This document shows positions 516 to 41,962 of a DNA stretch of 53,083 bases, piece after piece. Origin of the DNA: a virus; the IMG/VR virus record IMGVR_UViG_3300029258_001854; one strand, given 5' to 3'. A model generated the notes under the pieces. The model saw nothing but the letters and a program-made list of their open reading frames with translations, searched no databases and was not told the origin of the DNA. A program made the translations under genes and the position numbers. The stretch's first letter is position 1; each line of letters begins with the position of its first letter.

Positions 516-1738
516 GAGGTGAATACTTTTACAACACCGCTCATATTTATTCCATATGAGTCATTAAGATCTGCTATAGCATCTGCTTCGGAATCACTAC
601 CATAGTATCTGTATGCTAATGTTCTTGAACTCGTAAGGGGAACTTCAACTTCAACAACTCTAGCAGCAACCAATCTTCTACTTTGGAAAAGCTGTCTGAT
701 TCTGTCTCTTCCATCAAGAATTGTCGGTATAATGGAAAGATCCTTATCTCCATTTTCCATTATCAAATTGAACTGATCATCAAGAATTTGCTCGATTTCA
801 TCAATGTCACTAAGAGTCTTGAGATCCAAGTTTGCTGCGTGCTGATATGCAGAAGTCAGAGCAAGGCCATTTATACTGGTATTTATTGTTCTGTTATTCT
901 TGTTTATTGCTGCAGCAGCATTTGTTCCAAAGCTAAGCTCAAGATCTGTGAGGAATCCGAAGCCAAAGAATGTCCTAAAGGACTCAAAACCAGATACAGC
1001 TGTTGCAACAGTTCCATTTATTGTAGCAAAAACATTTGTTACTGCATTTGCAAATGCTTGAGGAGCAGAAGCTAAAACTGCAATGTTTTCCTGTATCTCA
1101 GCAATTTGAGAGGTCACATCAGCAACTGCATCTTCAACTAGCTGAACAGCTTCACCAACTTCTTCTATTGCATCTCCAACTCTTGTTGCTGCTTCTTTGA
1201 GGTCATTGTATACACCAAGCAATCCTGTATCAGCTTCAAGATTTTCAGCTAAGTCAGTATTTGCATTAGCATTGGCAATTTCCTGTGTATTATTTAGAGA
1301 TGCCGCCTCAGCAACATCCTCTGCAATTACACCATCAAAATTGGAAACCTGAAATGTTACAGTCAGGCCACCCTTGCCAATTGACTCATCACTTTCATCA
1401 AGTGACCAATCTACGGCCTTTATATCAGTTAAAGCACCAAAAGTTGGATGAACTAGTAATCCCTTACCTGGAGAGTTAAGAGCATCTATTACATAGTCTC
1501 TCTCTGAAATATAGTCAGGCTGCTCTCCAGTTCCAACAGCATCAAATGGCTGTATACAGCCCTTTATCTTGTATGTGCTAAGTTTACTTCCAAGCTCTTC
1601 AATAGTTTGTTTTGAGCTATTAGCAATCTTGTGTATTGCTACTTCAGTACCACCATCTGTGGTATATGAGTATGCATACCACTGCACACCCTTGTATTGC
1701 ACAGGGAATAGATACTCTGAACCTTGTACAGTTGCCAT
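512..1738 (-). CDS. DNA circulation protein-like tail protein (Mu gpN-like)
   Basis: Tracked ORF 512..1747. The ATG at 1738 forms TAATG with the tape-measure stop; 1747 is a TTG alternative. The N-terminus (FPVQYKGVQWYAY...IHKIANSSKQTIEELG) resembles the gpN family, and the gene sits between the tape measure and the hub. Confidence 0.65.
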   Translation of the reverse strand: MATVQGSEYLFPVQYKGVQWYAYSYTTDGGTEVAIHKIANSSKQTIEELGSKLSTYKIKGCIQPFDAVGTGEQPDYISERDYVIDALNSPGKGLLVHPTFGALTDIKAVDWSLDESDESIGKGGLTVTFQVSNFDGVIAEDVAEAASLNNTQEIANANANTDLAENLEADTGLLGVYNDLKEAATRVGDAIEEVGEAVQLVEDAVADVTSQIAEIQENIAVLASAPQAFANAVTNVFATINGTVATAVSGFESFRTFFGFGFLTDLELSFGTNAAAAINKNNRTINTSINGLALTSAYQHAANLDLKTLSDIDEIEQILDDQFNLIMENGDKDLSIIPTILDGRDRIRQLFQSRRLVAARVVEVEVPLTSSRTLAYRYYGSDSEADAIADLNDSYGINMSGVVKVFTS

Positions 1739-16276: not shown

Positions 16277-16667
16277 ATCCAGCTATCCGTTTCTGCGCGT
16301 ATTTGACAAACGCTACGGATTTTAGGATAGCGAAACTTCCGGGCACGCCTAATAAATTTTCCAAAGAGATTAGGAATGTCCAATTACCTCTATTCTTCCT
16401 GTGGGCAACTACCGGCTCACGACCTATAGCGCGACAATCCATGACTGCTTTGAGCCACCATTTGTCATAAGTTGAAAAATAAGTTACATTCTCTACTCGC
16501 TTGACTTCATAAGCAAAAGGATGGTTTTCAGGTATTACATCAATCCCTCCAGACCTGACTTGCTCGAGATTTCTCTCAGGCACAGACTCAACTAGATGCT
16601 TCTGATACAGCCATGTACAGAACTCACGTTCACCGGCTGCTCCCTTACTTCTGGCATTAATAGGCAT
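16257..16667 (-). CDS. PD-(D/E)XK nuclease, Holliday-junction-resolvase (Hjc)-like
   Basis: The start at 16667 is supported by AAGGAG 6 nt upstream; the longer tracked start at 16862 runs through the repeat array. Motif RSKGAAGEREF...AYEVKR. Confidence 0.6.
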   Translation of the reverse strand: MPINARSKGAAGEREFCTWLYQKHLVESVPERNLEQVRSGGIDVIPENHPFAYEVKRVENVTYFSTYDKWWLKAVMDCRAIGREPVVAHRKNRGNWTFLISLENLLGVPGSFAILKSVAFVKYAQKRIAGYDGRGS

Positions 16668-16686
16668 GAATTGCTCCTTTACCTTT

Positions 16687-16695
16687 ATTATAGCG
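16687..16695 (-). promoter_or_regulatory. CGCTATAAT promoter (-10), copy 5, driving the late block
   Basis: The minus strand reads TTCGCTATAATAAAGGTAAAGGAGCAATTCATG. The same 9-mer occurs at four plus-strand sites. Confidence 0.55.
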
Positions 16696-16716
16696 AATTT
16701 ATAGGGCTGAAGAAAG

Positions 16717-16797
16717 TTGAAAACCAATCGGCGTTTCCGGGTGGAAAATTTTGAAAAAATTTCAGCCAACCTGGTTCCTAGGTTGAAATTTTTGAAA
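16717..16797. repeat. A/T-rich block with four TTGAAA copies and small palindromes (AAAATTTT, GAAAAAATTTC)
   Basis: TTGAAA at 16717, 16751, 16783 and 16792. It lies between the late promoter and the dyad array. Confidence 0.6.
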
Positions 16798-16846
16798 TCG
16801 GTCTCAGCACTCGCGAGCGGCCCCGGATGGGCCGGATCTCGTTTCC

Positions 16847-16936
16847 CCCCGGGTGAAAACACACCCCCGGGTGATTTTTGAGCCCCCTAGGGTGAAATAT
16901 CACCCCCGGGTGTTGATTTTCCCCCACGGGTGGTGA
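16847..16936. repeat. Array of five dyad-symmetric sites, (CA)CCC-N2-4-GGGTG, spaced 18-21 bp
   Basis: GGGTG cores at 16851, 16869, 16890, 16908 and 16928. Examples: ACACCCCCGGGTGA and TCACCCCCGGGTGT. Confidence 0.8.
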
Positions 16937-16967
16937 TTTAGGGGTAGCGGGGGGGTGCCGGGGGGGT

Positions 16968-16978
16968 TATACTATATT
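16968..16978 (+). promoter_or_regulatory. Candidate early promoter -10 (TATACT / TATATT)
   Basis: GGGGGGTTATACTATATTCA immediately follows the dyad array and faces the early block. Confidence 0.4.
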
Positions 16979-17017
16979 CATGGCGTCGGGGATTTACCCC
17001 GATGCTGGCCGGAGGAG

Positions 17018-17278
17018 CCGATAGAGGGGATTTCACCTCGGGCTAGACGCCCGCGTAGCCGAGTCAACGCGCGTCCGCGATTGTGCGGAGTAACGGACGC
17101 CTACATCCAAATACCCACCAGGGTGGGTAGGTCCACGGTCGGGCGCGAACGGCGATAGCAGCCCGCTCGCGCGGGGGTTTACACCCTCGCTCGCCATCGG
17201 TCCAATGACGTCGCCTAAGCTCGCGCCAAAAAAACAGGCTACGCTCGCACGCGATCGGGGTGAAATACCCTCTATCGG
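17018..17278 (+). ncRNA. GC-rich structured segment closed by a 19/20-bp long-range helix (structured leader, ncRNA or protein-bound DNA element)
   Basis: CCGATAGAGGGGATTTCACC (17018-17037) pairs with GGTGAAATACCCTCTATCGG (17259-17278). Internal hairpins include GCGTCCG..CGGACGC, ACCCAC-CAGG-GTGGGT and CCCGC-TCGC-GCGGG. Confidence 0.45.
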
Positions 17279-17323
17279 TTCCTCGACAATAATCGTAGGG
17301 ATATCCCTACCAAGGAGACAAAA

Positions 17324-17890
17324 ATGTCCGATATTCTCGACAACGCCAACGCCATCCTCATCCCGCTCATCAATGGAGGCACGACCGATGAGGATGAACT
17401 CATGACGGCCCTCGCCAACGCGGGTGGCTTTTCCATCAAGCGCATCCCGTCTCTGGTAACCCAGATTCTCCAGGATGAGGGGCTCCGCACTTCTCCCAAG
17501 GAACGCAACGAGGCCGTGGCTGAGCTCTTTGCCTCGGACACGCCGACCTTCGGAACCTGGGATGACGTCATTGCGGCTGCGGAGCGTGTCTGCGACCACG
17601 TGGCGAACACGACCACGGCGCAGGCGGTCACTTCCATCAAGAAGTGGGCCAAGGCCAACGGTGTGGAGTTGCCCTCCAAGCCCAAGGCGGCTGCGGGTGG
17701 ATCCCGGCGCAACGCATACGATGCCTTCGCAGAGTGGTTCCTGGCAAACCCCCAGGCCACGGACACGGATATCAATGACTATGCCCTGGGTGCCTTCCTC
17801 AAGGATGGGGAGCCCAATGAGAAGCAGGCTGTGAAGTACGCAGCCATCTTCATCCGCATGGCGGCCATGGCCCGCGCCTACCAGGCGTAG
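17324..17890 (+). CDS. Hypothetical early protein
   Basis: 188 aa with an AAGGAGACAAAAATG start context and GC-rich codon usage. A strong terminator follows. Confidence 0.7.
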   Translation: MSDILDNANAILIPLINGGTTDEDELMTALANAGGFSIKRIPSLVTQILQDEGLRTSPKERNEAVAELFASDTPTFGTWDDVIAAAERVCDHVANTTTAQAVTSIKKWAKANGVELPSKPKAAAGGSRRNAYDAFAEWFLANPQATDTDINDYALGAFLKDGEPNEKQAVKYAAIFIRMAAMARAYQA

Positions 17891-17898
17891 CCAAGGGT

Positions 17899-17939
17899 GA
17901 GGGGTGGGGTCCACACGGACCCTGCCCCTCTTGCTTTTT
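17899..17939 (+). terminator. Rho-independent terminator
   Basis: GAGGGGTGGGGTCC-ACAC-GGACCCTGCCCCTC stem (about 14 bp including G.U pairs), followed by TTGCTTTTT. Confidence 0.75.
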
Positions 17940-18031
17940 CTCACATCCAACCTGTGAAGGAGCCAACACCGCAATTTTGCCAAGCCACGCAGATTGCATG
18001 CCAAAATTCATGCCAACACGCTCCAGTGCGT

Positions 18032-18122
18032 GCTCGCTCGTGCGCTCGCTCGTGGGCGACAGCGACAACGACAGTGACAGTGCTAGTGCATATTCGCGCG
18101 ACAGTGACAGTACGCGAATATG
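18032..18122 (+). repeat. Short tandem repeats plus a 10-bp hairpin
   Basis: GCTCGCTCGTG twice (18032, 18044). GACARY hexamers (GACAGCGACAACGACAGTGACAGT). CATATTCGCG (18089-18098) pairs with CGCGAATATG (18113-18122). Confidence 0.6.
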
Positions 18123-18168
18123 GAGTTGCACTCTCGCCACTCTGAATGCCAATAAGGAATTTGAATCA

Positions 18169-18435
18169 ATGCCCAAGTGCCCTAGCTCTCTGACTCTCAC
18201 GACCTTGGATGATGTCGCCGAAACCTTCGATGGTGTGTCCGAGGAGGTGTACGACCAACTCTACTTGTACAGTGTCGCAGACAATCGCGACCCTCAAGAT
18301 GACTGGGACCCGGCAAGCTGGAAGGCTGGGAGCCCCAACCTCATCGAGAAGCGCTGGAACGAGTTGCCTCTCGTGCTCCAGTACACTCTCATCAAGATTG
18401 CTGCTAGGGAATATCCTGGAGACTTCTGGGACTAG
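18169..18435 (+). CDS. Hypothetical early protein
   Basis: The start was chosen at MPKCPSS because AAGGAATTTGAATCAATG carries the conserved initiation cassette. 88 aa, acidic. Confidence 0.6.
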   Translation: MPKCPSSLTLTTLDDVAETFDGVSEEVYDQLYLYSVADNRDPQDDWDPASWKAGSPNLIEKRWNELPLVLQYTLIKIAAREYPGDFWD

Positions 18436-24873: not shown

Positions 24874-24916
24874 AGCTCGCCCCTGCTGGCATACCGGGGT
24901 CTAAACTTGTATGCCA

Positions 24917-25018
24917 CTATATGGATACCCATTAGAACAAATACCGTGGATGCGGAGTGTTAATTGGGACAGGCGGTTTGTCCCCACTCATGCAACCGTC
25001 TAATGGGTATCCACATAG
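24917..25018 (+). ncRNA. Candidate stable RNA: 102-nt rod-like imperfect hairpin
   Basis: 24917-24936 pairs 19/20 with 24999-25018. Inner helices: TGC/GCA, GGAGTG/CACTC, GGGACA-7 nt-TGTCCC. Confidence 0.5.
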
Positions 25019-25161
25019 TATTTTATTGTTGAAGCATTATCAGGTGTATGGGCGTTGCAGGACGCTGCGACAGAGCAAGCGTGGCTCAGAGAAAATGGCC
25101 AACTCAAAACACGAGGGCTGCTTCTTAACTTTGGTGCGGTAGGTAACACCAGAGACTATGT

Positions 25162-41846: not shown

Positions 41847-41854
41847 AACAAAAA

Positions 41855-41927
41855 AGCCCCTCTAAGCGCCTAGATTCTTCCCCTAGCCTAGCCTATAGGC
41901 TCTGAGAAAAAGTCGCTTAGAGGGGCT
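41855..41927. terminator. Convergence-point terminator: perfect 14-bp stem with a 45-nt loop (repeat family copy 2)
   Basis: AGCCCCTCTAAGCG (41855-41868) pairs with CGCTTAGAGGGGCT (41914-41927). An A5 run on the 5' side gives a U-tract for minus-strand transcripts. Confidence 0.6.
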
Positions 41928-41962
41928 TCTGCACGGCCCTAGGTAGCGTTTTAGGGACGAAG

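Follow-up and report, generated by a model that had tools for sequence, protein, structure and literature searches.

The window, by which we mean the whole stretch of 53,083 nucleotides analysed here, is a phage contig of about 53 kb from an uncultivated marine phage. The phage is present in the samples ERZ27256770, ERZ27256791, ERZ27256796, JGI 3300017960, SRR6963308 and SRR14699966. Its gene content includes TerS, TerL, portal, major capsid, primase, helicase, family-A DNA polymerase and ligase, together with five tRNAs. A DNA search of the GenBank phages gave no match to the window. At the protein level, the best match of its TerL to a cultured phage among the GenBank phages is to Rhizobium phage RHph_X3_2, with 40% identity, and the TerL relatives in IMG/VR are all at 52% identity or below. 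The genome has a G+C content of about 42%; nucleotides 17001-18000 reach 61%, and the values elsewhere are roughly 40-45%. The segment described here is located in a 650-nt divergent gap between a minus-strand and a plus-strand block. The locus is composed of the following features:

up to 16670, minus strand: the PDDEXK-TerS-TerL block, which ends here and forms one side of the divergent gap
16966..16976, plus strand: GTTATACTATA, the -10-like box (TATACT, 16969-16974) of the presumed first early promoter, kept in nine lineages
16983..17005, plus strand: hairpin at the predicted 5' end of the transcript, GCGTCGGGG / CCCCGATGC, with a 5-nt loop
17012..17040, plus strand: 5' arm of the long-range helix, containing GGAGGAG and a reverse-oriented half motif, ATTTCACC
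17041..17255, plus strand: GC-rich interior, 65% G+C, lineage-specific, with structure at chance level
17053..17060, plus strand: 5' strand of the nested helix (GCGTAGCC), with 8/8 pairing
17139..17220, plus strand: 82-nt block present in the window and in L087, missing from L088-L091
17237..17244, plus strand: 3' strand of the nested helix (GGCTACGC), pairing with 17053-17060
17256..17284, plus strand: 3' arm of the long-range helix, containing GGGGTGAAATA; T17279 is C in three strains
17295..17310, plus strand: small perfect hairpin, GTAGGGAT/ATCCCTAC, just 5' of the SD
17313..17890, plus strand: SD (AAGGAGA, 17313-17319) and the conserved 188-aa first early gene (17324-17890)
17899..17939, plus strand: strong intrinsic terminator with a 14-bp stem and a T run, closing the promoter-leader-gene unit

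The initial annotation had placed the segment between an early promoter and the SD and ATG of the first early gene. This placement is borne out by a conserved -10 box on the upstream side and a conserved gene on the downstream side, and the untranslated stretch from the box to the SD/ATG is roughly 340 nt long. We infer the promoter from conservation alone: in nine lineages TATACT or TATAAT is found at 293-317 nt from the PDDEXK start. A strict sigma-70 scan of positions 16500-18200 detected no full promoter and no recognisable -35 element. At 16946-16976 a G-run occupies the place expected of a -35. The presumed early promoter may need either an activator that binds the upstream array or a different sigma factor. 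Near the promoter, four substitutions within six bases distinguish the strains (GGGGGGGTG vs GGATGCGCG). The loci in IMG/VR that have GTTATACTATA belong to unrelated AT-rich phages. No terminator was found within the leader, and judging from this absence and from the conserved -10 box, both arms of the helix would be carried on one transcript.

The family of the 188-aa protein comprises at least 14 clusters, all of them from metagenomes. The protein has no match in Pfam, PHROG or the PDB and no match to a DNA-binding protein, and a comparison with GenBank phage proteins gave a single weak match. The AlphaFold model is confident (pLDDT 82.5) and predicts an all-alpha fold of nine helices, with one structural match to an unnamed viral protein (A0A8E5XKS9, E 6e-6). 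A coding frame spanning the segment, which the initial annotation had named as a possible ground for abandoning an RNA interpretation, was sought in the minus-strand ORF 17033..18004. This ORF was rejected as a gene: it is antisense to the protein conserved in 14 clusters, and it would be frameshifted in nature because the natural 82-nt deletion is not a multiple of three. The array, promoter, leader, 188-aa gene and terminator together form a GC-rich self-contained unit, which is moron-like in outline.

The inverted repeat that defines the segment is real and statistically solid. The two 20-mers on which the initial annotation had based a closing helix of 19/20 bp are located at 17018-17037 and 17259-17278 and are complementary at 19 of 20 positions. 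The pair accounts for two matches in the window, with none expected from 100 shuffles of the window. The claim was correct in coordinates and pairing and fell short in length, as the full arms (17012-17040 and 17256-17284) comprise 29 nt and are 90% complementary, with 26 Watson-Crick pairs. The three remaining positions are G17017·T17279 and T17038·G17258, both of which read G·U on the plus strand, and a G·A at 17029/17267. When the two G·U pairs are counted, the pairing in plus-strand RNA amounts to 28/29. The repeat ranks first among the inverted repeats of the whole 53-kb window. Inside it and in register lies the second, nested helix (17053-17060 with 17237-17244), which is perfect over its 8 bp and is parted from the closing helix by unlike blocks of 11-12 nt.

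The duplex of the two arms has a calculated energy of -50.8 kcal/mol on the plus strand and -42.4 kcal/mol on the minus strand, a difference of 8 kcal/mol. Folded within the full leader, the arm positions have pair probabilities of 0.9-1.0, except for the mismatch and its neighbours, and this range applies to the long strain as well as to the strain with the 82-nt deletion. The pair probability of the nested helix at 17053-17060 is 0.99. The whole segment folds equally well on both strands, with z of -5.2 on the plus strand and -5.1 on the minus strand. A switch in which the 5' arm masks the SD was tried and discarded: the modelled accessibility of the SD was 0.55 with the arm and 0.47 without it.

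The interior is quite different from the arms in its structural properties. The 215 nt of 17041-17255 have z = -0.9 relative to dinucleotide shuffles, and coding controls of equal length behave in the same way. The whole-segment z of -5.2 is thus due to the closing repeat. Several nested hairpins had been described in the initial annotation. Such stems can be drawn, with no excess of structure over the controls, and two of those named overlap: the stems that begin with GCGTCCG (17071-17077) and CCGC (17075-17078) have bases in common and cannot both form fully.

Strain variation was examined in six assemblies of the lineage: the window, L087 and L088-L091. The repeat is present in all six, including the strains with the deletion, and the orientation of the segment is identical throughout. 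The 82-nt deletion is bounded by short TCG.GCGC direct repeats and removes a third of the interior, leaving both arms intact. Two substitutions preserve pairing. T17279C, found in three strains, turns a G·U of the closing helix into G-C, and G17079A turns a G·U of an inner hairpin into A-U. A third substitution, C17115G, disrupts a predicted inner stem. The closing helix is absent outside the lineage, and within it the changes are one-sided only, from G·U to G-C or A-U. The arms change at about the rate of their surroundings (1 change in 58 nt vs about 1.5%). The changes between strains are few, and are compatible with a helix in plus-strand RNA. The strand bias is derived from two or three sites, with an estimated chance probability of roughly 0.05-0.25.

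Relatives of the locus were reached through the early protein and the adjoining PDDEXK protein, and are syntenic contigs from marine and saline metagenomes. A search of IMG/VR with the arm pattern and a profile of the early protein found nothing. The divergent layout is common to nine lineages. Between L081 and the window TerL is 85% identical, whereas the early protein is only about 50% identical. Downstream of the -10 box, all nine lineages have 270-450 nt of untranslated sequence with a G+C content of 51-60%, and thus the long GC-rich leader is a feature of the clade. The leaders of the relatives are positioned as follows:

L081, 4712-5000
L093, 2640-2994
L096, 1228-1672, minus strand
L097, 1300-1696, minus strand
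L108, 1337-1697, minus strand
L116, 1045-1500
L118, 1155-1500
L120, 164-551

The centres of these leaders fall into four groups: the window by itself; L096 and L116; L097 and L120; and L081, L093, L108 and L118. The central sequence is completely different between the four groups despite the 85% identity of TerL. By sequence comparison, the leader looks like a hypervariable non-coding slot that opens the early transcript. The ends of the leader in L081 resemble those of the window. L081 has a hairpin where the 16983..17005 hairpin sits in the window, with a different stem sequence, and another one like that at 17295..17310.

Among seven other lineages with the same gene order, no long-range helix exceeds what is found in shuffled sequence, with L081 borderline (4 of 100 shuffles). 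The closing helix is thus an innovation of the lineage of the window. Long-range 5'-3' pairing conserved in all leaders was looked for and not found. The long-range helices predicted in L096 are, on inspection, not kept in its close relative L116.

The leader hairpins of L081, L093, L108 and L118 show compensatory changes in 11 of 39 pairs across the four sequences, and this implies that RNA structure matters in the leader slot of at least one subfamily. Part of these leaders is a 60-nt module of two hairpins with compensatory changes, which is found at four places:

L081, 4835-4895
L093, 2866-2925
L108, 1404-1463, minus strand
L118, 1378-1437

The pattern of the module is YCCGG-YG-CCGGR, then GCGRGAG..CCGAC-UAGGGCA-GUCGG..CUCYCGC. 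A covariance model, R1, finds it at 72-88 bits in its four lineages, and it is not in Rfam. In three lineages a hairpin near the module has a loop, GAUUCGGG, whose sequence is complementary to that of the final hairpin loop upstream of the SD.

Two other observations concern the wider set of relatives. The leader of L097 contains two runs of about 27 A (1560-1650, minus strand), and its equivalent in L099 contains a single longer run; these may be either real or an assembly artefact. Four further contigs (L100, L102, L105 and L107) encode a PDDEXK protein that is 66-71% identical and have a different layout. Their genes upstream of PDDEXK are on the same strand and include a RepB-type primase, DUF3310 and a MazG-like protein, and there is neither a divergent gap nor a long leader.

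The interior of the window has no counterpart in these leaders. Local alignment against shuffles detected no significant similarity between the interior and the leaders of seven relatives, and R1 has no plus-strand match in the window. Homology of the 82-nt block to the two-hairpin module was suggested by a pairwise MAFFT alignment; the idea was dropped, as local alignment was not significant and R1 gave no match on the plus strand. An Rfam scan found nothing in the segment at E<=10 and nothing at E<=1 in five relatives, in keeping with the initial annotation, in which the segment could not be matched to a known RNA family. With Rfam empty and the closing helix missing from all other lineages, a conserved RNA family was rejected. 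The initial proposal of a structured leader or independent non-coding RNA thus does not survive in the sense of a conserved RNA: there is no family match, the closing helix is confined to one lineage, and the interior is neither structured nor conserved.

We tentatively explain the repeat as a lineage-specific, long-range dsRNA stem that acts as an RNase III-type processing or stability signal in the leader of the early mRNA, and our confidence in this explanation falls just short of even. The duplex is longer than two helical turns and has an internal loop, making it a predicted RNase III substrate, and a processing or stability signal is therefore its most likely role. A role as RNA is favoured over one as DNA by the G·U bias, by the nested second helix, and by complementarity that extends far past the 10-bp GGGTGA motif. 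Furthermore, the nested 8-bp helix lies beyond unlike blocks of 11-12 nt, which is not the pattern that a single short inverted duplication leaves behind.

From the sequence and the structural model, we infer transcription from the predicted promoter, formation of the helix in vivo, and cleavage by RNase III with its effect. Host RNA polymerase would initiate about 7-10 nt past TATACT, near 16981, and would transcribe about 340 nt of leader (about 260 nt in the deletion strains) before it reaches the first early gene. The 3' arm, once made, would pair with the 5' arm 245 nt upstream. The predicted stem would consist of 17 bp, a 2x2 internal loop and 9-10 bp, which together provide the dsRNA of at least about 22 bp expected of an RNase III signal, and then a small junction and 8 more bp. 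It would enclose the GC-rich interior as one closed domain, with the 5' hairpin outside on one side and the short hairpin and a free SD on the other. Cutting by host RNase III would separate the 5' leader and the interior from the coding part, and would set the half-life or the translation of the first early message.

Phage T7 has RNase III sites both in the leader of its early mRNA (R0.3) and between its early genes (R0.5-R1.3). The helix of the window resembles R0.3 in its position between strong host RNA polymerase early promoters (here a presumed promoter) and the first early gene. The T7 site and the predicted helix are dsRNA stems that span some two helical turns or more and are interrupted by an internal loop. 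As in T7, long interrupted hairpins also form a family between the early genes on the plus strand of the window, and the 21-bp stem at 24916-25019 is a further paired element on that strand. However, each T7 site is a local hairpin of about 60 nt, whereas in the window 215 nt separate the two strands, which close off an entire domain. The two systems are not similar in sequence, and on the side of the window the comparison is drawn from sequence, with cleavage as a prediction.

RNase III requires a minimum of about 22 bp of dsRNA (PMC5371410). Its sites include those in the N leader and elsewhere in lambda, in T7 early RNA and in many 5' UTRs, and its cuts in 5' UTRs can be stabilising, destabilising or RBS-unmasking (PMC5371410). 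Lambda N, like the early gene of the window, is a first early gene with a long leader (about 220 nt) and an RNase III-sensitive duplex before the SD (PMC5371410). Unlike lambda, the window has no recognised nut or boxA-boxB, and its first gene is not N-like. In leaders of the lambda cIII and adhE type RNase III alters translation, whereas the model of the window lacks helix-dependent masking of the SD. The leader-trailer helices of bacterial rRNA are another analog, in which distant segments pair over about 26-30 bp, enclose a structured RNA and are cut by RNase III. These helices enclose the conserved 16S or 23S rRNA, whereas the 215 nt enclosed in the window are neither conserved nor detectably structured.

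The arms might instead function as DNA. They would then be inverted GGGTGA/TCACC half-motif sites for the putative regulator of the five-site array upstream of the promoter; binding would loop the early unit or act on it as a roadblock. We consider this unlikely. The sequence GGGTGAAATA is present both at 16890 (array site 3) and at 17258, so that the 3' arm is identical to array site 3 over this motif, and copies of the motif occur in the leaders of exactly those lineages that have a GGGTGA array (the window, L081 and L096) and not in L093, L097 or L108. The initial annotation had the site-3 motif in both arms, and this stands for the GGGTGAAATA copies; yet each arm holds a half-site of the upstream dyad only. 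The array sites are dyads of the form CACCC-N2-GGGTG, but the arms have CACCTCGGGCT and CGATCGGGGTG, with one good half-site each. The complementarity runs for 17 bp past the motif (GAGGAGCCGATAGAGGG) and resumes in the second 8-bp helix, which a 10-bp protein site does not explain. Moreover, the leader copies in L081 and L096 are direct repeats rather than inverted ones, and the neighbouring 188-aa protein has no match to a DNA-binding protein.

The repeat could also have no function and be what is left of an inverted duplication that arose by template switching, in a spacer that evolves fast under weak constraint. This account is improbable in our judgement. It would fit the hypervariability of the central leader between lineages, the tolerance of an 82-nt deletion in the interior, the confinement of the helix to one lineage, the interior without excess structure, and arms that change about as fast as their surroundings. 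On the other hand, all assemblies of the lineage that were read retain the repeat, deletion strains included, and the mismatches in its arms read as G·U on the transcribed strand. Non-matching blocks separate the second, nested helix from the first. In addition, host RNases would be unlikely to overlook a stable 28-bp duplex in a leader that is presumed to be highly transcribed.

A special case of the RNase III stem is one in which the processing stem (29+8 bp) frees the interior of 215-245 nt as a discrete and abundant early non-coding RNA with a function of its own, for instance an anti-defence decoy. The architecture is like that of the rRNA and tRNA precursor stems that excise their contents, and the slot between the promoter and the first gene holds a different GC-rich cargo in each lineage, as an arms race would predict. 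However, the interior lacks excess structure and conservation, natural strains do without a third of it, Rfam gives no match, and the leader contains no terminator. We regard a released RNA of this kind as quite improbable. Its extension to the whole clade is just as improbable: the leader would be a hypervariable cargo slot from which each lineage expresses a different GC-rich RNA at the start of infection, with that of the window being freed by the stem.

A mobile or invertible DNA element, either a MITE-like insertion or a phase-variable inverton, is extremely unlikely: 29-nt terminal inverted repeats (90% complementary) that flank about 215 bp immediately upstream of a gene fit both outlines, but the flanks GGCCG and GACAA (...GCTGGCCG / GACAATAA...) contain no direct repeat and thus no target-site duplication, the segment is present in a single copy in the phage and in none in IMG/VR, 596 Gb of genomes gave two unpaired single matches with about four expected by chance, all six assemblies have the one orientation, and every relative has a long leader at the same place, so that there is no empty site. 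The small non-autonomous element suggested in the initial annotation is discarded on these grounds.

The predicted helix is best described as a long-range form, unusual and present in one lineage, of a known kind of element: the long dsRNA stem of phage early leaders. As a feature of a single lineage, it amounts to a modest lead and not to a discovery. Cleavage of the stem by RNase III, if it occurs, would extend the processing of early messages in the style of T7 and lambda to a clade of uncultivated marine phages, in an unusual long-range version with strands 215 nt apart in place of a local hairpin. The hypervariable GC-rich leader slot, which runs across the clade, may be of greater interest than the helix itself. 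A long, GC-rich and fast-changing leader in every lineage of a phage with 42% G+C points to selection on the RNA or the DNA of this slot at the onset of infection.

Two other paired elements were found in the window. At 24916-25019 on the plus strand, a 62-nt hairpin domain closed by a near-perfect 21-bp stem (MFE -49.9 kcal/mol, z -5.8) sits in the tRNA cluster, with tRNA-Met on one side and tRNA-Thr on the other. A U-rich tail follows it, it has no Rfam match, and it could be a small RNA, a terminator or a further processing stem. At 41854-41928 an 18-nt inverted repeat, 94% complementary and with a 39-nt spacer, is positioned at the convergent junction of the replication block (plus strand) and the tail block (minus strand), and is probably a bidirectional terminator.
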